Made by a program: the position numbers and the translations under genes
Shown here: positions 1,067 to 33,036 of the stretch, one piece after another
How the letters are laid out: each line of letters begins with the position of its first letter
Position numbering within the stretch: position 1 is the stretch's first letter
Assembly: GCA_963844965.1 (NCBI GenBank)
Contig: CAWJQC010000006.1
Location: 58,014-122,013 of the forward strand
Length of the DNA: 64,000 nt
Source of the DNA: an uncultured bacterium
Lineage (GTDB): Bacteria > Patescibacteriota > Minisyncoccia > UBA6257 > 2-01-FULL-56-20
Reading direction: 5' to 3'
Notes under the pieces: model-generated
Told to the model about the DNA's origin: nothing
What the model saw: the letters and a program-made list of their open reading frames with translations, nothing else
Databases searched by the model: none

Positions 1067-1231
1067 GTGCCAATTTTGTGATAGATGAAACGCAACTTGT
1101 CCCCACACCAACGCCATGTGCCGCGGGAGAGATTCGAACTCTCATAGTCTTACGACTGCTGGCTCATACTCGCCCCGTACCGAGCTTTGCTCCGGTGCGG
1201 GGAAGCCAGTGCGCCACGCACTAAATTTTGC

Positions 1232-1316
1232 CGGTGCCGAGGGTGGGATTCGGACCCACAACCCTTTCGGGACAGCGTCCTAAGCGCTGCGCGTATTCCA
1301 TTTCCGCCACCTCGGC
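1232..1316 (-). tRNA. tRNA-Leu (anticodon UAG)
   Basis: Reverse complement gives GCCGAGG-TG-GCG...CAGCG-CTTAGGA-CGCTG-[long variable arm cccgaaagggtt]-GTGGG-TCCGAAT-CCCAC-CCTCGGC-A. It has a 7-bp acceptor, a T-arm, a long variable arm and G37. Confidence 0.75.
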
Positions 1317-1622
1317 AAAATTTAGTGCGGTGTTCCGCCACCGCGACATTTGCGCGGGGATGAACCTGCCTACCAGCAAGCAGGCCCGCCAACCTGCCCG
1401 CACCGCTCCCATCACTGTTTATCTTAAATCCCGCCATCGTTTTATTCAACAACACGGCAGAATTCCGCAACGCCCATAAAAATGCCGGTGAGATAAAGCT
1501 CCATGGGCTTACCTGCGCTTCGCCGAGGCTGCGGCAAGGCGAGCGCCCGTGGTATCTGGAAGCTTTACCCCGCCCCGACCGCGGTCGGGGCGGGGTATTC
1601 AGCGGGGATTTAATATAAAAAA

Positions 1623-2631: not shown

Positions 2632-2979
2632 TCAACAGCCTCCACTGACGCTACTGGCACCGACTATACTGGCGACTATTGACGGGACGGACTTCGCGAG
2701 AATTGCCACAATGATGCCTGCAGCGGCATAAGCAAGCGTCTTATGCGCCGAACTCACTCTTTCTGCGTTATCGCCGCCGGTAACATAGAGAAACCCGGCG
2801 TAAATTATCATAATCACGGAAAGCGCCATCAGAATGTAAAACATGGCAACGGCGATCGGGCAGAGAATTTTACTGGTAATATCCGAAACGCCGCCGCTGA
2901 AAGTTATGCCGGAAACGTCGGCATAAGCGCCGCTTACGCCAAAAAGTTTCAGGAAACCGAGAATCAAAACCGGCGACAT
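2632..2979 (-). CDS. T4SS pilin-like protein paralog
   Basis: ...MFYILMALSVIMIIYAGFLYVTGGDNAERVSSAHKTLAYAAAGIIVAILAKSVPSIV, the same domain architecture as the neighbouring paralogs. Confidence 0.55.
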   Translation of the reverse strand: MSPVLILGFLKLFGVSGAYADVSGITFSGGVSDITSKILCPIAVAMFYILMALSVIMIIYAGFLYVTGGDNAERVSSAHKTLAYAAAGIIVAILAKSVPSIVASIVGASSVSGGC

Positions 2980-3079
2980 TATGGTCCTCGTTTTCGGCGA
3001 GTTTCACAATGTAATTAACTATTTTCATAGTCCTTTCCTGCCTATTAATTTTAACACACCGGGCAAGTTATAAAACTAT

Positions 3080-3646: not shown

Positions 3647-4806
3647 GGCGCTACACGTGCCGCCGCTGGTGCCAGCAGGCGATGTTGTAACACATTCACC
3701 GGTAGTAGTATTGCAGTAGGGGGCGTTACTGTATGCAGCGGCGCACTGACTGTTGCTGCTACACCCAACGCATGCATTATTAACGCAGATGGGCTGGGTC
3801 TCGACCGTGCATTTGGTGCTATCAGTGCCACAGCCGCTCGGCGCGGTCGTAACACATTCACCGGTAGTAGTATCGCAGTAGGGAGCATTACTATATGCAG
3901 CGGCGCACTGACTATTACTGCTACATGCAGAGCATATATTATTGACGCAGATAGGTGCCGTCTCGCTCGTACAAATACACTACTATCACCACTGCAACTG
4001 GTCGGCGAGGTTGTGACACATTCACCGGTATTAGTATTGCAGTAAGGAGCATTACTATATGCAGCGGCGCACTGACTATTACTGCTACACCCAACGCACG
4101 TGCCACTAGAGCCACAGATGGGCTGGGTCTCGCTCGTGCATTGACTGCTATCGGTGCAGCTACCGCCGCCGCTGCATTGATTGGTGCTCGGCAAGCCGGG
4201 CGCCAGACAGCCCGAAGAACCATACCAGCCGCATCCCGCACTACAGCAGGTAGGTTGATCAATGCAATTACTGCAACTGGATAAGTTACACGAACTGCCG
4301 CCGGTGCTCGCATTGCATACTTGCCCGCCGGCGCAACCACTATCGGAGCTGCAGGAGTTGCCAACGCCGCTACTATTGGCGTTATTTGACAGACAACTGC
4401 CAATCTGGGGGGATGCCACCGCGCAAGTGCAACCGACCCCAGTATAACAATTTCCCGCCGGCGAAGCGGAAGCGCAACTGCAAGTAACCCCATCAGAATT
4501 AGTATTGCATACCTGGCCACCAGCGCAGCCGGAGTCGGTCGTGCAGTTTCCGCCGCCGTTGGATGGGTTGCAAGACACGGAACAATTACTATCGGAGTAA
4601 GCGTTGGTTCCACAGCCTGCTGGATCTAAACAATTACCGGCCAGACAGTCATCGTTCGTCATGCAACTCGAACCGCAGGCTTCATAGAACGTACTGGGAC
4701 AGGCCTGCGCGTGACTTACAGATGGTCGGCCAAAACCGAAAATAAAAGCGGCGATGACCACAAAAGCGAAAATCAGAAGCCGCTTCTTCATAATTTTATT
4801 ATACAT
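3643..4806 (-). CDS. Secreted Cys-rich repeat protein (N-terminal part of the Cys-rich/pilin fusion; frame lost near 3960)
   Basis: Signal peptide MKKRLLIFAFVVIAAFIFGFG, then about 60 Cys in repeated CxxC/GxC motifs. Three DNA tandem repeats of about 160 bp lie at 3691, 3853 and 4017. After about 3960 the translation degenerates (SVFVRARRHLSAS...), as expected for a frameshift inside the third repeat. Confidence 0.5.
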   Translation of the reverse strand: MYNKIMKKRLLIFAFVVIAAFIFGFGRPSVSHAQACPSTFYEACGSSCMTNDDCLAGNCLDPAGCGTNAYSDSNCSVSCNPSNGGGNCTTDSGCAGGQVCNTNSDGVTCSCASASPAGNCYTGVGCTCAVASPQIGSCLSNNANSSGVGNSCSSDSGCAGGQVCNASTGGSSCNLSSCSNCIDQPTCCSAGCGWYGSSGCLAPGLPSTNQCSGGGSCTDSSQCTSETQPICGSSGTCVGCSSNSQCAAAYSNAPYCNTNTGECVTTSPTSCSGDSSVFVRARRHLSASIIYALHVAVIVSAPLHIVMLPTAILLPVNVLRPRRAAVALIAPNARSRPSPSALIMHALGVAATVSAPLHTVTPPTAILLPVNVLQHRLLAPAAARVAP

Positions 4807-4815
4807 TATTTGGCG

Positions 4816-5334
4816 CTATTCGGGCAGAAACTTAGACCATAGTCCTTGCCAGACAGAGCTTTCGTTAACGAAAGCTGGCACCGTCAGGGCGACTTTCAAT
4901 AGGCAGGCCTGCGGCTGCGTAATACCCAGGGCGCTGAGAAAATCAGATTCCGCCCGACTGCGCACTTCGTTGAAAGGATTGTTAAGTATAGTGATGAGGA
5001 AGCTGCTGTCAGCAGGAAAGTAAAGAATGTGGTAATCTCCGGTGCTTCTGAACAAAACATAATCACCCGCTTCTACTCTCACGGCATTTTTATAGGGATT
5101 TTTTACTTCCACGCTGCCGTTGGGCGTACCGATGGTAATCGTATCTCCCTCGGGGACGGGGATTGGCGGCGGAGGAGGCGTTGGTGACGTGGGCGGGGAA
5201 ATCGGCGGCAAGCCGCCGGGACCGGTACTTCCGGCAGGAGAGGTCTTGTTCCTGACAACCAAAACGACAACTACTCCGACGACTAGCACAAGAAAAATTA
5301 CCGCTATAATAATTATTCTTCTCGTTTTTAACAT
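4816..5334 (-). CDS. Hypothetical membrane-anchored Pro-rich protein
   Basis: N-terminal TM helix, a PPISPPTSPTPPPPPIPVP linker, then a beta-rich domain. It sits inside the pilin cluster. Confidence 0.4.
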   Translation of the reverse strand: MLKTRRIIIIAVIFLVLVVGVVVVLVVRNKTSPAGSTGPGGLPPISPPTSPTPPPPPIPVPEGDTITIGTPNGSVEVKNPYKNAVRVEAGDYVLFRSTGDYHILYFPADSSFLITILNNPFNEVRSRAESDFLSALGITQPQACLLKVALTVPAFVNESSVWQGLWSKFLPE

Positions 5335-13789: not shown

Positions 13790-14026
13790 CTAATGGACGC
13801 CCTCGCCTTTTGTTACTATTCGCCTATTACCCCGCTTCTCAAGATGCCAATGATGGCCTGCCTCGCATTCGTAATCCTCAATTGGACACAGACAACCTCT
13901 TATCGCTTTGCGCCCGCAACCGGGTTCGGGACAAAGATAATAACTCTTCTTCTTGCTCCATGGCATCAATCTCTCGCCATACTTGTATGGAACTCGGCCC
14001 TTTGTAACCTTGTCAATCCATCTCAT
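13790..14026 (-). CDS. Hypothetical small Cys-rich protein
   Basis: 78 aa with CPEPGCGRKAIRGCLCP...CEAGHH motifs. Confidence 0.3.
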   Translation of the reverse strand: MRWIDKVTKGRVPYKYGERLMPWSKKKSYYLCPEPGCGRKAIRGCLCPIEDYECEAGHHWHLEKRGNRRIVTKGEGVH

Positions 14027-14142
14027 CCAAGCACCTCGCTAAAGGTTTCTGGTATTTAGTATAAACCAACGGCGGCAAAAATAAAAGCGGCGCTTTACTT
14101 TTTCCCAAAATTTTATATTCTATATTCTGTATCCTGCCTTAT

Positions 14143-14217
14143 GCCTGGGTAGCTCAGTGGTAGAGCGCAGCCCCGAAGAGGCTGGCGTCCGGTGTTCGAT
14201 TCACCGCCCAGGCACCA
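14143..14217 (+). tRNA. tRNA-Phe (anticodon GAA), CCA encoded, unusual C33
   Basis: GCCTGGG-TA-GCTC-AGTGGT-AGAGC-G-CAGCC-CCGAAGA-GGCTG-GCGTC-CGGTG-TTCGATT-CACCG-CCCAGGC-A-CCA. Confidence 0.7.
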
Positions 14218-14220
14218 AAA

Positions 14221-14252
14221 GAAAAACCCACGTTTAGTGGGTTTTTCTTTTG
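14221..14252. terminator. Rho-independent terminator after tRNA-Phe
   Basis: gaAAAACCCACgtttaGTGGGTTTTTcttttg. Confidence 0.5.
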
Positions 14253-14255
14253 TTC

Positions 14256-14345
14256 GGTCGGGCTGCCCGGATTCGAACTGGGACTAAATTTTACCCCGTA
14301 GCATCCGGCTTTAGTCGGATTGCTTCGGGGCCTCCCACCCCGCAC
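14256..14345 (-). other. tRNA-like 3' fragment (T-arm plus acceptor 3' strand CAGCCCG-A-CC) lacking a matching 5' acceptor
   Basis: Reverse complement ends ...CCCAG-TTCGAAT-CCGGG-CAGCCCG-A-CC. The best local 5' partner, CGGGGTG, has a G.G mismatch. The perfectly complementary CGGGCTG lies about 290 nt upstream in the 14524..14561 fragment. Confidence 0.35.
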
Positions 14346-14358
14346 TAAAAATTTACAT

Positions 14359-14429
14359 TCGGACTGCTGGGAGTCGAACCCAGGCCGCGTGCTCCCAAAG
14401 CACGTATACTACCGCTATACGACAGTCCG
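14359..14429 (-). tRNA. tRNA-Pro (anticodon UGG)
   Basis: Reverse complement: CGGACTG-TC-GTAT-...-CGTGC-TTTGGGA-GCACG-CGGC-CTGGG-TTCGACT-CCCAG-CAGTCCG-A. Confidence 0.7.
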
Positions 14430-14465
14430 ATAAATTTTAATCGCTTAGCTCATAAAATCGGTTCA

Positions 14466-14498
14466 TTCGGAGAAAATGAAAACCGAATTTTCATTTTC
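14466..14498. other. Perfect 14-bp hairpin (GGAGAAAATGAAAA / TTTTCATTTTCTCC)
   Basis: ggagaaaatgaaaaccgaattttcattttctcc lies between the tRNA-Pro gene and the upstream tRNA-like 5' fragment. It could act in processing or termination. Confidence 0.4.
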
Positions 14499-14523
14499 TC
14501 CTCACTGCCAATTTTAGTATGGG

Positions 14524-14561
14524 GCAAGAAGGACTCGTGCTAGCCGTTACACTACAGCCCG
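14524..14561 (-). other. tRNA-like 5' half (acceptor CGGGCTG, D-arm, anticodon stem AGTCC and loop TTCTTGC) with no 3' half adjacent
   Basis: Reverse complement: CGGGCTG-TA-GTGT-AACGGCTA-GCAC-G-AGTCC-TTCTTGC, then ccca with no matching 3' stem. Confidence 0.35.
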
Positions 14562-14689
14562 TCTCGCGCCCCTTTAACTTATTCGATTTTTGATTTAAAA
14601 TCAATGCGAGCTTCTGCCCCTATAGCTCAATATGGATAGACCTATCTGCCGGCAGGCGGGGTAGCGCTCTTCCCAGCCCACCATAATTT

Positions 14690-14761
14690 GCCCTCGTAGT
14701 TCAATGGATAGAACTCCGGACTTCTAAGCCGGATATGGGGGTTCGATTCCTCCCGAGGGCG
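14690..14761 (+). tRNA. tRNA-Arg (anticodon UCU), atypical anticodon arm
   Basis: GCCCTCG-TA-GTTC-AATGGAT-AGAAC-T-CCGGA-CTTCTAA-GCCGG-ATAT-GGGGG-TTCGATT-CCTCC-CGAGGGC-G. Position 31:39 is A.G; otherwise there is a perfect 5-bp stem around a 9-nt loop. Confidence 0.6.
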
Positions 14762-14796
14762 CGAAAACAGATATCGACTTTTTCGCAAAATTAGGT

Positions 14797-15588
14797 ATGA
14801 AACTAATCTCCCTGAACATCTGGGGCGGCAAAGTATACGAACCGCTCATAAAATTCGTAAAAGAATCGGCGCCGAGCACCGACATTTTTTACTTTCAGGA
14901 AGTTTTTTTCTCAAAATCAGGCATAAAAGAGAGCCATGGCACACGGGTGAATATATTGGAAGATCTTGCCGCGGTTCTTCCCGATTTCCGTTCTTTTGTC
15001 GCGCCCACGGCGAGCGGTTACGACAACGCAGGCCCCGTGGATTTTGACATAACCGAAGCGAAGGTGGTTTTTCTGAAAAAAAATCCGGCCTATCTCGCAA
15101 CGGCCGACGGAAATGTCTTCACCTCGGGAAACTATCGGCGTCTAAGCAGAAACGAAAAAATGGAGAATGTACCGACCAACTTTCAATACCTGCGATTGTC
15201 AGCGAATGGCAAAAAATTTGCCATTTTAAACGTCCACGGTGTATCTAGGCCTGGCGACAAGCTTGACACGTCGGAACGCCTCGCGCAGTCGCAAAAAATA
15301 GTGGACTTCCTGCGCGGCGAAGACGGCGCGAAAATTATCTGCGGCGATTTCAACTTACTGCCGCAAACGAAAAGCATCGCGATGATTGAGAACGCGGGGA
15401 TGATAAATCTGATAAAAAAATTCAATATTGAGCTTACGCGCAGCCGACTGTCCCCATTCTTCGGCAAGCCCGATTTTCAAAAATTCGCCGATTACGCGTT
15501 TGTCTCGCGGGACGTCAATGTGATAAACTTCACCGTCCCGGACATTCCGGTTTCCGACCACCTTCCGCTTGTGCTGGAGTTTTCATAG
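14797..15588 (+). CDS. Endonuclease/exonuclease/phosphatase (EEP) family protein
   Basis: 263 aa: MKLISLNIWGG...DIFYFQEV...ILNVHG...ICGDFNLLP...SDHLPLVLEF, the EEP motifs. Confidence 0.6.
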   Translation: MKLISLNIWGGKVYEPLIKFVKESAPSTDIFYFQEVFFSKSGIKESHGTRVNILEDLAAVLPDFRSFVAPTASGYDNAGPVDFDITEAKVVFLKKNPAYLATADGNVFTSGNYRRLSRNEKMENVPTNFQYLRLSANGKKFAILNVHGVSRPGDKLDTSERLAQSQKIVDFLRGEDGAKIICGDFNLLPQTKSIAMIENAGMINLIKKFNIELTRSRLSPFFGKPDFQKFADYAFVSRDVNVINFTVPDIPVSDHLPLVLEFS

Positions 15589-15737
15589 AATATATAATGC
15601 GAATAGGGCGCGGAAAGCGCGCTTAGGGCCGACGCCCCGACTAAAACAGCGCGGGGGTCGGCCTCCCGACGCCGACCAATGTCGGGCGTCGGGACTCAAT
15701 GGCGGGGCGACTCGTTTATTCACCCCGTTAGATTTAT

Positions 15738-15809
15738 GGGCACTTAGCTCAGTGGCAGAGCGACTCGCTTACACCGAGTAGGTCGGAGGTTCAATCCCTC
15801 CAGTGCCCA
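15738..15809 (+). tRNA. tRNA-Val (anticodon UAC)
   Basis: GGGCACT-TA-GCTC-AGTGGC-AGAGC-G-ACTCG-CTTACAC-CGAGT-AGGTC-GGAGG-TTCAATC-CCTCC-AGTGCCC-A. Confidence 0.8.
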
Positions 15810-15867
15810 CTAAAAAATCTAATGGGGCAAGCCGAGAAGGCTGCAGGTCCGATTCCTGCGTCGCCCA

Positions 15868-15963
15868 CAGTGGCAGAGCGACCGCCTTACACGCGGTAGG
15901 TCGTAGGCTCGCCCCGTAGCAAACCGAAGGTTTTGCTTCGGGGTTCAATCCCTACAGCGCGCA
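15868..15963 (+). other. Second tRNA-Val(UAC)-like copy, 5'-truncated, with a 36-nt hairpin insertion between T-stem and T-loop
   Basis: ..C-AGTGGC-AGAGC-G-ACCGC-CTTACAC-GCGGT-AGGTC-GTAGG-[ctcgccccgtagcaaaccgaaggttttgcttcgggg]-TTCAATC-CCTAC-AGCGCGC-A. No GCGCGCT acceptor 5' strand or D-stem 5' strand lies upstream. It is preceded by a T-arm-like GCAGG-TCCGATT-CCTGC-GTCGCCC-A fragment. Confidence 0.35.
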
Positions 15964-16009
15964 CAAAAACAAAAACGTCCAACTGGGCCGTTTTTATTTT
16001 TGTGCGCTT
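15959..16009. terminator. Long hairpin terminator
   Basis: GCGCACAAAAACAAAAACGtccaactgggcCGTTTTTATTTTTGTGCGC. Confidence 0.5.
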
Positions 16010-16120
16010 CAGAACCCTCGGTTCTGAATAATCTCCGACACGGGAGGAACCTCATACTTTCTCGCGCCAATTTCTGAAGAAATTGGCGGCGCAAGGATTA
16101 ATCAATATAATAACTAGAAT

Positions 16121-17059
16121 ATGCTCAAAGTCGGCATTTTAGGAGGCGGGCCGTCGGTGGAGCACAAAGTGTCGCTCGCAAGCGCGAGAAATGTCTACGA
16201 GTCCACTGACCGGACGAAATACGAACCGCATCTTCTGATTCTTCGGCGCGACAAAAAATTGTTTTCGGGCAAAAAAGAGCTGCCGTTCCCGCACGGGCTG
16301 AAGCAGTTTGACATCGTATTCAATGCGCTTCACGGAATGTTCGGCGAAGACGGCAAATTGCAGAAAATTTTTGATCGCACGGGCATTAAATATACCGGCT
16401 CCGGCAGCCGCGCCTCCGCGCTCGGCATGGACAAGTGGCGAAGCAAAAAACTATTCGGAAAAGTCGGCTTAGCGGTACCACAATCAAAACTGATTACGAG
16501 CCGGAAACATTCCAACATTCTGCAGAATATTAGAATATTTCCCGTTGTTTTAAAACCCAGGAATGGCGGCTCATCTGTCGGTGTTTGCATAACGCATTCG
16601 CCGGAAGAATTAAAAAGAAAAGTGGATCGGATTCTCGAGAGCGATGACGCCCTTGTTGAACAATACCTGCCAGGCAGAGAATTCGCGGGTGGCGTTTTGA
16701 AATACAACGACGAACTGCGGCCGTTTCCCATCGTGGAAATAAAACCGAAAGCAAAATACAAATTTTTTGACTATGAAGCAAAATACAAAACGGGCGCGAG
16801 CGAAGAAATAGTTCCGGCCCGCATCGATACCGCACTCGCGCGAAAAATCCAAAAAGCCGCGCTCTTGGCCCACAAAGTTATCGGCGCTAAAACATATTCC
16901 CGAAGCGATTTCATCATGCACAACGGAAAAATTTATATTCTTGAAATCAATACCCTGCCCGGCCTAACGAAAAATTCTCTCGTTCCGAAAGCCGCGCGTG
17001 CTACGGGAATTCCCTTCACGAAATTTATAAGCATCGTCATTGATTCTGCTTTAAAATAA
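16121..17059 (+). CDS. ddl: D-alanine--D-alanine ligase
   Basis: MLKVGILGGGPSVEHKVSLASARNVYE...ALHGMFGEDGKLQ...GKIYILEINTLPGLT. Confidence 0.85.
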   Translation: MLKVGILGGGPSVEHKVSLASARNVYESTDRTKYEPHLLILRRDKKLFSGKKELPFPHGLKQFDIVFNALHGMFGEDGKLQKIFDRTGIKYTGSGSRASALGMDKWRSKKLFGKVGLAVPQSKLITSRKHSNILQNIRIFPVVLKPRNGGSSVGVCITHSPEELKRKVDRILESDDALVEQYLPGREFAGGVLKYNDELRPFPIVEIKPKAKYKFFDYEAKYKTGASEEIVPARIDTALARKIQKAALLAHKVIGAKTYSRSDFIMHNGKIYILEINTLPGLTKNSLVPKAARATGIPFTKFISIVIDSALK

Positions 17060-32410: not shown

Positions 32411-32816
32411 CTGAAAAATGTTTCCGTTTAATTCCTTTTAGCAGATTCCGCGGAAAAAATCAATAACCGCCACTTGAGAATATACGCCTTGGAATGTAAA
32501 ATGAAGTTGGTCGGAACTGCGAACTGGCGCGATTATTACATAACTAATACGACAGAAAACATCCGTTCGGTTCGGCTCGCGGCAATTAACATTTAACGCA
32601 CAAGCGGGCCCCGCACCGAGCCGGGCACTTCGTTTTCTACAACGTCGGTGGTAAGATATTGTAACCACACCAAATTCAAAACTTGGCATCGGCAGTTTTT
32701 TTCAGGAAAATGTAAAAGTGTTGCGGTGCCCGATCTGGTGACGGGGCGGGTGTAGCACGGCGGTTAGTGCGGACCTTCCAAGCCCCGCACCAAAGAAGGA
32801 CTTGGTGAGTCATCTT

Positions 32817-32887
32817 GCGGGCGTAGTATAGCGGCAATACGTCACCCTTCCAAGGTGAAGTCGTGGGTTCAACTCCCATCGCCCGCT
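32817..32887 (+). tRNA. tRNA-Gly (anticodon UCC)
   Basis: GCGGGCG-TA-GTAT-AGCGGCAA-TAC-G-TCACC-CTTCCAA-GGTGA-AGTC-GTGGG-TTCAACT-CCCAT-CGCCCGC-T. Confidence 0.7.
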
Positions 32888-33036
32888 CACAAAACGCAAG
32901 CAGTCCTTCTTATGGTGACAGGGCAAGCAACATACGGCGGTTCGACTCCGCTCACCCGCTCAGAAGAAGGGGGTTGGGGGATAATTACCACGCAAACATG
33001 ATTAGGTGCACATTTGAAAACGGCAGTGAGGCCTTC

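Follow-up and report, generated by a model that had tools for sequence, protein, structure and literature searches.

The DNA analysed here (the window) is a stretch of 64 kb from an uncultured bacterium of the Patescibacteriota (GCA_963844965.1, contig CAWJQC010000006.1, positions 58,014 to 122,013), in which four of the eight transfer RNA (tRNA) genes are nested, i.e., an intact tRNA gene lies between the pieces of another one that has been broken. We believe, with a probability that we would put at about three in four, that these nests arose by the serial insertion of short mobile hairpin elements carrying a replacement tRNA, and that the broken genes are neither split nor spliced tRNAs. The element has pairable inverted-repeat ends with a CCCC...GGGG core, which in the canonical form read TTCA-CCCCGTTAGA followed by 4-6 variable pairing bases on one side and ...TCTAACGGGG-CAAG on the other. 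The 4-6 bases inside the core vary but pair, and the interiors are otherwise unrelated to each other. A first-pass annotation had noticed tRNA halves in this region and held that sequence alone does not decide between a split or intron-containing tRNA and the scars of serial integration and decay. This could be decided once comparative data were added. Fetched loci bear L numbers. The syntenic relatives among them (L001, L003, and L004) were reached through homologues of a neighbouring protein of the window, which itself has no exact database record; in L004 this protein is 65% identical.

The tRNA-Pro locus illustrates the arrangement (coordinates of all features are collected in Table 1). 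The orphan 5′ half described earlier on the minus strand is real, but it ends at U33 (14561-14529) and not after a full loop; the "TTCTTGC" taken for its loop is U32 and U33 followed by the CTTG end of an inserted element. The 3′ T-arm/acceptor fragment is equally real, only it is not a single piece but two exons (14337-14331 and 14289-14258) around a 41-nt hairpin (14330-14290). As had been proposed, the orphan acceptor strands CGGGCTG and CAGCCCG pair 7/7 (a given 7-mer is expected ca. 0.05 times per 800 positions), and an intact tRNA-Pro and a perfect 14-bp hairpin (14469-14501) do lie between the halves. When the three pieces (14561-14529 + 14337-14331 + 14289-14258) are joined, they give a tRNA-Pro(tgg) that ARAGORN accepts and that is 72/73 identical to the uninterrupted orthologue found at the same place in syntenic L004, which we regard as the decisive test. 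Piece 1 is identical to L004 3206-3134 over the same stretch, and both the 191-nt element and the 41-nt hairpin are absent from L004. The sole difference between the two genes breaks a T-stem pair in the window, where the T-arm has one A-C mismatch. As the same tRNA-Pro stands uninterrupted at the same place in L004, the outer gene is the ancestral resident, with two insertions; the inner tRNA-Pro is presumably the working gene. The arms of the Pro element (14512-14524 and 14338-14350, right end GGGGCAAG on the plus strand) are 13 nt long and 85% complementary. This copy lacks the TT of the canonical head (AA on the tRNA strand), which is why the outer exons are still perfect. No copy of its 14-bp hairpin was found in any fetched locus by exact-pattern search.

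At the tRNA-Val locus the nesting goes one level deeper, with two broken genes, X and Y, around an intact one. The second Val copy of the first-pass annotation (15868-15963) is present, but its 5′ end has not been lost, as was claimed: it sits 240 nt upstream (15617-15626), where its acceptor GCGCGCT pairs 7/7 with AGCGCGC at 15956-15962. The pieces of Y (15617-15626 + CT at 15695-15696 + 15868-15907 + 15944-15963) fold as a perfect tRNA-Val(tac), and the 36-nt hairpin reported at its T-stem/T-loop junction is indeed there, between G53 and T54 (15908-15943); L003 and L021 carry inserts at the same tRNA position. Between the pieces of Y lies X, which had gone unnoticed together with two hairpin inserts in the D-arm (H1 and H2) and with the nests at tRNA-Leu and tRNA-Gly. 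Rebuilt from 15617-15626 + 15695-15718 + CA + 15832-15867, X is a tRNA-Val(tac) with two acceptor mismatches; these mismatches and the 5′ piece common to X and Y point to a deletion between similar D-arms. The anticodon loop of X holds a canonical element (arms 15723-15735/15815-15827) with the intact tRNA-Val as cargo. Its right end, GGGG-CAAG, explains the short motif said to recur in the region, since ATGGGGCAAG has exact matches at 14519 and 15822 only. The hairpin inserts at 14294-14330 and 15912-15943 have stems CCCCGTAGCA/TGCTTCGGGG. The 10-mer GCGCGCTTAG that opens Y also heads the outer Val gene in L003, L004, L036, L042, L050, and L127, and in L004 both H1 and H2 occur at the same position (about 4817-4880) with the stem sequence kept too. 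These pieces come after the stop codon of the upstream gene and might serve as a terminator.

Table 1. Positions of tRNA genes, their pieces and the inserted elements in the window, and of related features in other loci where stated.
Feature	Position	Strand	Remarks
tRNA-Phe, intact	14143-14217	+	ARAGORN and Rfam
Outer tRNA-Pro(UGG), piece 1 (positions 1-33)	14529..14561	-	acceptor CGGGCTG, D-arm, 5′ anticodon stem, U32 U33
Pro element, 191 nt	14338..14528	-	CTTG-CCCC...GGGG on the tRNA strand, between U33 and U34 of outer tRNA-Pro
14-bp perfect hairpin in Pro element	14469..14501		GGAGAAAATGAAAA / TTTTCATTTTCTCC
Inner intact tRNA-Pro(UGG), cargo	14358..14430	-	ARAGORN; Rfam tRNA 59.5 bits
Outer tRNA-Pro, piece 2	14331..14337	-	U34 G35 G36 G37 A38 G39 G40 (TGGGAGG)
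41-nt mini hairpin insert	14290..14330	-	CCCCGAAGCA...TGCTACGGGG-TAAA; 3′ strand of outer anticodon stem, between G40 and A41
Outer tRNA-Pro, piece 3 (A41-A73)	14258..14289	-	rest of anticodon stem, variable loop, T-arm, acceptor CAGCCCG, A73
tRNA-Arg, intact	14690-14762	+	ARAGORN and Rfam
5′ end of outermost tRNA-Val Y	15617..15626	+	GCGCGCTTAG (GCGCGCT TA G)
Hairpin inserts H1 (15627-15663) and H2 (15664-15694)	15627..15694	+	between G10 and C11 of broken Val D-arm; 11-nt and 10-nt arms
Remainder of 5′ half	15695..15718	+	CTC AATGGCG GGGC G ACTCG TTTA; CT needed by Y, remainder belongs to X
Canonical element, 113 nt	15719..15831	+	TTCA-CCCCGTTAGATTT...AAATCTAATGGGG-CAAG; in X anticodon loop, replaces C36 A37
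Inner intact tRNA-Val(UAC), cargo	15738-15809 (or 15810)	+	ARAGORN; Rfam tRNA 72 bits
3′ half of X	15832..15867	+	C38, CGAGA, AGGCT, T-arm GCAGG TCCGATT CCTGC, GTCGCCC, A
Y from C13	15868..15907	+	D-loop, intact anticodon arm ACCGC CTTACAC GCGGT, 5′ T-stem GTAGG
36-nt hairpin insert in Y	15908..15943	+	CTCG-CCCCGTAGCAAA...TTTGCTTCGGGG, between G53 and T54
3′ end of Y	15944..15963	+	T-loop TTCAATC, 3′ T-stem CCTAC, acceptor AGCGCGC, A73
Leu nest	1119..1347	-	outer Leu-like pieces 1347-1331, 1216-1203, 1168-1119
Gly nest	32746..32960	+	outer Gly-like pieces 32746-32782 and 32928-32960
TCC T-loops	1243-1259, 15843-15859; L001 5164-5237		
L154, three tandem GIY-YIG units			repeats CTTGtCCCGTTACAAAT...ATTTGTAACGGGaTGAA
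L099, one GIY-YIG unit			repeats CCCGTTAGAGATAGG...CATCTCTAACGGG
L095, GIY-YIG unit abutting tRNA			repeats GCCCCTCACCTAGAA...TTCTAGGTGAGGGGC

That these are insertions is seen where filled and empty versions of one site are available. We took the flanks of filled sites and looked for them in the fetched loci at a distance of 0-8 bases from each other (up to 2 mismatches per 18 nt), which gave 52 matches. Uninterrupted Val-UAC, Val-CAC, and Ala tRNAs, as well as an Arg D-loop, hold "ca" at the position of the element, while a second class of empty sites holds "cgca", "caca", or "taca". The tRNA-Arg and tRNA-Val of the window are themselves empty versions of sites that are filled in other loci. 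There is also one polymorphism outside tRNA genes, a site filled in L154 and empty ("caaa") in L159-L166. The rule that emerges is that TTCA...CAAG replaces 2 or 4 target bases, usually CA, with no target duplication. In form the element is similar to a miniature inverted-repeat transposable element (MITE), but given the absence of a duplication it is probably not driven by a DDE transposase. The elements share with MITEs and palindromic elements a short length, terminal inverted repeats, a non-coding interior, many unrelated sites (intergenic DNA, gene ends, coding sequence, and tRNA), and the coexistence of filled and empty sites. Other models of insertion were considered and rejected: an IS200/IS605-like one (insertion 3′ of TTCA), as the empty sites hold CA rather than TTCA and there are no separate end hairpins, and IS91-like (CTTG target), integron attC-like (GTTRRR/YYYAAC), and serine-recombinase (2-bp core) ones, for which the predicted junctions were not observed.

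The nested arrangement is common in bacteria of the Candidate Phyla Radiation (CPR, Patescibacteria). A metagenome scan for both ends at a fixed spacing of 75-105 nt found them in at least 120 loci. Among all half-sites in ca. 1 Mb of fetched DNA, the bases outside the core were TTCA in 136 and CAAG in 134 of ca. 165 copies. Scanning one genome per species for the Val junction gave true matches only in CPR lineages (Niyogibacteria, Portnoybacteria, Parcubacteria, and bins labelled Saccharibacteria), again as nests; the remaining matches were chance ones in coding sequence. No rRNA was found in the 20 loci scanned for it. Among the matches listed there were 109 unique copies, of which 59 held an intact tRNA (Ala-CGC 17, Val-CAC 14, Val-UAC 12, Pro-UGG 7, Pro-CGG 3, Leu-CAG 3, Val-GAC 2, and Arg-UCU 1) and 50 held AT-rich sequence. 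The flanks of the cargo-bearing copies are the two halves of another tRNA, and not one of the 50 cargo-less copies listed interrupts a tRNA. When TTCA..CAAG was swapped for CA, ARAGORN recovered a junction-spanning tRNA for 51 of 71 copies, and in 33 of the 71 the rebuilt outer tRNA matched the cargo in anticodon and strand. Copies without cargo are found in intergenic DNA and at the 3′ ends of genes, the stop there being provided by the frame TTG CCC CGT TAG, and in two independent cases they are in frame and stop-free within Pfam domains, in ligA (L056) and in a MiaB-like radical-SAM gene (L113/L158). Such in-frame copies add ca. 37 residues, starting with ..CPVRE/HPVRE and ending with ..ISNG(V/A), and their presence within conserved domains argues that the elements are not removed from the RNA. 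In addition, three copies in L087 (113-7101) have the same flanks over a span of 7 kb, suggesting that a segment carrying the element is repeated there in tandem.

The other two nests of the window follow the same plan. At the Leu locus an intact tRNA-Leu(UAG) (1316-1233) with perfect 17-nt arms (1217-1233 / 1313-1329) sits in the D-loop of an outer Leu-like gene, whose anticodon loop has been hit by a 34-nt mini hairpin (1202-1169) and whose anticodon after repair is TAT, i.e., damaged or altered. At the Gly locus the outer acceptor strands GCGGGTG/CACCCGC pair 7/7 around an intact tRNA-Gly(UCC) (32817-32888), and the element terminates in GGG-CAAG (32921-32927); the 3′ anticodon strand of the outer gene is gone and ARAGORN found no tRNA in the attempted rebuild. 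The 34-nt mini hairpins form a family of their own (CCCC-GCACC...GGTGC-GGGG-CAAG), which L001, L002, L021, and the window all have in outer genes, at the D-, anticodon-, and T-loops; it was recovered by fuzzy search, an exact-pattern search of the fetched loci having come out empty. Nest depth varies a great deal among relatives. L003 has two levels, with a single outer Val (GCGCGCT...AGCGCGC) whose D-loop and T-loop bear hairpins and whose anticodon loop holds a stem-flanked Val, while L001 reaches four levels at each of the Val and Pro loci, including some 5′ halves without 3′ partners. The neighbour proteins of L001 and L003 are identical yet their nest depths differ, so turnover is fast.

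What has become of the outer genes? Of the acceptor and T stems, 9 of 52 were defective in outer genes and 0 of 51 in inner ones (Fisher p = 0.003, in the best-preserved subset), 20 of 71 outer genes could not be rebuilt at all, and halves are missing or chimeric in L001, L005, L012, L015, and the Val locus of the window. The outer copies thus look like tRNA pseudogenes, being interrupted, with stem defects, and each with an intact gene of the same kind inside. One could nevertheless imagine that they are functional, the nest being transcribed as a whole and the inner tRNA cut out (by RNase P/RNase Z) or the stem removed (by RNase III) and the halves ligated or used as a two-piece tRNA, a bacterial counterpart of the multi-intron or split tRNAs of archaea. 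The exact restoration of the outer tRNA-Pro of the window by removal of two inserts would be in line with this, as would the many outer tRNAs that are well formed after in silico repair, the covariation of the arms between loci with pairing kept (e.g., CCCCGTTAGATTT in the window and CCCGCCCACCTTTT in L003), and the conservation of GCGCGCTTAG, H1, and H2 between the window and L004. Yet joining the halves gives a complete tRNA with its anticodon loop for the outer Pro and for Val Y of the window, not for most copies elsewhere, in which a single excision would leave no 7-nt anticodon loop (the loop either lacks CA or retains TT and AG). Junctions were inspected for bulge-helix-bulge motifs and none was seen; in place of two 3-nt bulges 4 bp apart there is an asymmetric 8-nt/5-nt internal loop, and a bulge-helix-bulge reading was rejected on this geometry. 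Nor did any intron family, group I or group II, match at E ≤ 10 within 13900-16200, under conditions in which the group I intron of the L004 tRNA-Phe, our positive control, scored 73 bits. The cargo usually supplies the same anticodon, which leaves the outer gene redundant, and in protein-coding genes the element is read through in frame. Considering also that we know of no tRNA-splicing endonuclease in bacteria, we find functional outer genes very unlikely, and the split or intron-containing tRNA of the first-pass annotation is not borne out.

Another possibility is that the arms are host signals for the processing or expression of the enclosed tRNA (an RNase III stem, for instance) and that the broken outer genes come from local duplication and from slippage of replication at hairpins, with no mobile element involved. 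The stems do stand directly beside the inner tRNA, their variable part covaries, and there are very few copies outside tRNA loci in the window. Against it, the same ends are found around unrelated AT-rich interiors between genes, at gene ends, and in coding sequence, they are common to units with a GIY-YIG open reading frame (ORF; see below), and one and the same site can be filled or empty, the non-tRNA case included. Moreover, inner and outer tRNAs are not local duplicates, and differences in copy position between closely related genomes at non-tRNA sites have in part been seen already. We consider this unlikely. As to classical phage or island integration by tyrosine or serine integrases (attL/attR, with the island later deleted), tRNA genes are standard integration sites, notably at the anticodon and T-loops, and there is a tyrosine-recombinase-like ORF in L069, itself interrupted by a copy of the element. 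Such integration would duplicate the 3′ part and regenerate a hybrid gene, whereas here complementary halves surround a complete gene with a different acceptor stem; besides, the inserts measure only 113-191 nt and have no ORF, the repeats are inverted and not direct, there is no duplicated core, and the neighbours are housekeeping genes with no integrase nearby. It is hardly credible as an explanation. The serial integration and decay envisaged originally is right in outline, with serial insertions and decaying outer copies, but the mechanism is not the classical one of attL/attR duplication by an integrase.

A candidate for the machinery behind serial insertion is suggested by the Val nest of L004, where a small GIY-YIG ORF separates the old 5′ fragment from the intact Val. 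In L099, L095, and L154, repeats of the same kind as those of the element exactly enclose GIY-YIG ORFs of ca. 83-103 amino acids (aa), and the pair TCCCGTTACAAAT...ATTTGTAACGGGA brackets the ORF, with the stop codon inside the right arm, in 11/11 loci checked for two 85-aa homologues. The link with the short elements is also visible in L068 and L144, where 25-28 nt at the ends of short copies recur at the end of the GIY-YIG unit of L099. In some loci an 85-aa unit splits an IS5-type transposase gene between its DUF772 and DDE_Tnp_1 parts (L171 175-1428, L172, L167-L174), so that one mobile element lies within another. The 85-aa protein consists of the catalytic domain alone and has UPF0213 proteins and the structure-specific nuclease Slx1 as relatives, and its 3,933 database homologues are mostly on contigs under 2 kb, as expected if the repeats break assemblies. 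The insertion sites have little in common other than CA, which speaks against a long recognition site. The autonomous form is likely, judging from these sequences, to be a unit of ca. 290 bp in which inverted repeats of this kind flank a stand-alone GIY-YIG nuclease of 85 aa. The GIY-YIG units were picked up by protein search; a search for an autonomous copy between paired ends spaced by at most 6 kb returned only 2-level nests. In L004 the ORF in question (4800-5221) is annotated as 107 aa with a nuclease-domain match of ca. 87 aa, is preceded by GCGCGCTTAG, H1, H2, and CTCAG, and has its stop codon inside the first bases of the intact tRNA-Val; this stretch may be a unit that holds a nuclease plus a tRNA.

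The comparisons show the anatomy of the element, its insertion into loops of resident tRNA genes with loss of 2-4 bases, its distribution, the decay of outer genes, and the repetition of the process; selection for cargo, mobilisation by the GIY-YIG protein, and the way in which a tRNA first enters are inferred. Serial insertion would work as follows. A resident tRNA gene is split at the DNA level by a short non-autonomous element landing in one of its loops. CPR genomes presumably have about one gene per tRNA, and a hit without a working replacement would be lethal; we would then see only cargo-bearing copies in tRNA genes because the cargo-less hits had killed their hosts. The copies inside tRNA genes do hold an intact tRNA in the same orientation and usually with the same anticodon, and this inner tRNA would take over, leaving the outer halves as a pseudogene that decays and in whose D-, anticodon-, and T-loops mini hairpins accumulate. 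The next cargo-bearing element would then find its target in the gene that had taken over, giving 2 to 4 levels, and the cargo would make the element indispensable. The GIY-YIG nuclease could supply the cuts, the 2-nt staggered cleavage typical of the family fitting a loss of two bases, and tRNA genes might be hit often since their DNA can extrude hairpins. A tRNA could perhaps enter between the arms by way of adjacent insertions, as L095 and L004 suggest. The cargo would come from elsewhere, since identity within a locus is no higher than between loci, as one would not expect from a fresh local duplicate, and self-nesting through local duplication of cargo was rejected for this reason. The Val variants GGGCACT..., GGACGGT..., and GGGCGTT... 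are inner in some loci and outer in others, and such sequences fit serial invasion from a shared pool. Going one step further, the nests could have been left behind by a class of mobile DNA not yet described, with a repeat-plus-GIY-YIG unit of ca. 290 bp, a loss of 2-4 bases on insertion, and tRNA-capturing ORF-less "addiction" cassettes that destroy the single-copy resident, put their own tRNA gene in its place, can no longer be lost, and drive replacement by foreign tRNAs across CPR bacteria, a tentative proposal to which we would give slightly under even odds.

A number of facts speak against serial insertion as we present it. The route by which tRNAs got into the arms is left without explanation. 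The GIY-YIG link consists of association and shared ends, the activity being predicted, and in the window there is neither a GIY-YIG nor a transposase gene of the element family and only one copy with canonical ends. The spacing of 75-105 nt favours tRNA-sized interiors, so the cargo fraction of 54% is no population estimate. Viral contigs gave no element matches, leaving carriage by phages without support. Inner and outer tRNAs have an identity of 0.76 within a locus, against 0.77 for same-anticodon pairs across loci. The conservation of GCGCGCTTAG, H1, and H2 between the window and L004 appears to be more than expected for neutral remnants at 65% protein identity. Finally, the outer tRNA-Pro is exactly restorable by taking out its two inserts.

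Several known systems resemble the elements in part. The Rickettsia palindromic elements, which Ogata and co-workers reportedly described in 2000, are said to be ca. 100-150 bp long with pairing ends, to lack ORFs, and to be translated in frame and found in RNA genes as well. Like these and Correia-like MITEs, our elements are short, multi-copy, without ORF, and with pairing ends, both intergenic and in frame, and their mobilising enzyme is not obvious. Unlike the Rickettsia elements, with which they have different end sequences and no demonstrated common ancestry, they delete 2-4 target bases instead of duplicating them, bear a complete tRNA as cargo, form nests in tRNA genes of the same kind, and have a candidate autonomous GIY-YIG form. 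Integrative elements that target tRNA genes are kilobases long, have an integrase, and supply a duplicated 3′ segment only, and SegB of phage T4, a free-standing GIY-YIG endonuclease in a tRNA cluster, is linked to tRNA-gene inheritance through cleavage and repair between phage genomes. They are similar in being selfish DNA at tRNA genes that avoids harm by supplying a replacement, but here it is a whole tRNA gene on an element of ca. 110 bp.

Closer in host range are the inserts in rRNA genes of CPR bacteria, which lie at the tips or bases of stem-loops; all those that encode GIY-YIG match neither group I nor group II introns, and many of the ORF-less ones are shorter than 200 bp (PMC11270868). 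They concern rRNA only, and neither inverted-repeat ends nor tRNA cargo or nesting are described for them, but they may belong to the same family as the elements found here. Group I introns in tRNA anticodon loops of Patescibacteria, which hide the genes from annotation tools (PMC13011429), also interrupt anticodon loops in the same phylum, and the tRNA-Phe of L004 is a true example. They are ribozymes of 200-300 nt with precise self-splicing and a match to RF00028, while the elements have no ribozyme core and no Rfam match, and in most cases their removal would not give a normal loop. The L004 intron (2824-3061; RF00028, 73 bits) is likewise in the anticodon loop, and the orthologous tRNA-Phe of the window has none. 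The disrupted tRNAs of archaea (multi-intron, split, or permuted) have several break positions, including D- and T-loops, and complementary acceptor strands, and a mobile-element cause has been proposed, as in the Caldiarchaeum model of an element disrupting a tRNA gene and leaving a stray 5′ fragment (PMC3293823). Their pieces are rejoined by a splicing endonuclease at a bulge-helix-bulge and remain a working gene; here the host is a bacterium (with transfer-messenger RNA, tmRNA, and SmpB), there is no such motif, and function would pass to the cargo. Searching the literature by sequence and by concept, we found no account of bacterial tRNA-in-tRNA nests, of these repeats, or of GIY-YIG units with inverted repeats. 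The elements are of a known kind, that of short non-autonomous inverted-repeat elements, with tRNA cargo, nesting, and loss of target bases as new features; it is possible that they make up a wholly new class.

If serial insertion is correct, tRNA genes across a bacterial radiation have been repeatedly overwritten by copies travelling in tiny selfish elements, a route of gene replacement not previously described. It would also be a natural case of a clean selective filter, with a mobile element persisting in an essential gene solely by virtue of the spare it carries. It would also offer a DNA-level route to tRNA genes broken in the D-, anticodon-, and T-loops, which bears on the debate over the origin of split and intron-containing tRNAs. 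The stand-alone GIY-YIG nuclease with inverted repeats is a candidate minimal transposon and, if confirmed, would be among the smallest self-contained transposable elements. For annotation, standard tools see the innermost gene only, and the hairpins and outer halves around it may pass for introns, for split tRNAs, or for intergenic structure that lacks an explanation.

With regard to the window as a whole, gyrA, a ribosomal S1-like gene, ddl, smpB, and tmRNA mark it as a segment of a bacterial chromosome. The gene between tRNA-Arg and tRNA-Val codes for a protein of the endonuclease/exonuclease/phosphatase family, with named homologues in CPR bacteria (Giovannonibacteria, Liptonbacteria, Daviesbacteria, and others). 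The intact tRNA-Phe, Pro, Arg, and Val listed at the outset were each called by both ARAGORN and Rfam. The intron-tolerant mode of ARAGORN, which had been put forward as a check, and its low-threshold mode gave inconsistent and implausible calls, did not recover the nests, and were dropped for detection, and Rfam at permissive E-values over 13900-16200 returned the four intact tRNAs and chance-level matches, with no intron and no ribozyme. Between tRNA-Phe (plus strand) and the Pro nest (minus strand), a hairpin AAAAGAAAAACCCAC GTTTA GTGGGTTTTTCTTTT with runs of A and T on both sides (14218-14252) has the look of a bidirectional terminator. The intact tRNA-Arg is closely preceded by a degenerate tRNA-Arg-like sequence (GCCCCTATAGCTCAATATGGATAGA..., 14616-14675), with neither arms nor a 3′ partner seen, whose alignment score of 32 compares with a shuffled mean of 17 and was reached by 2 of 500 shuffles. 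Several tRNAs, the intact tRNA-Leu included, have T-loops reading TCC (C at position 55) in place of the near-universal TTC.

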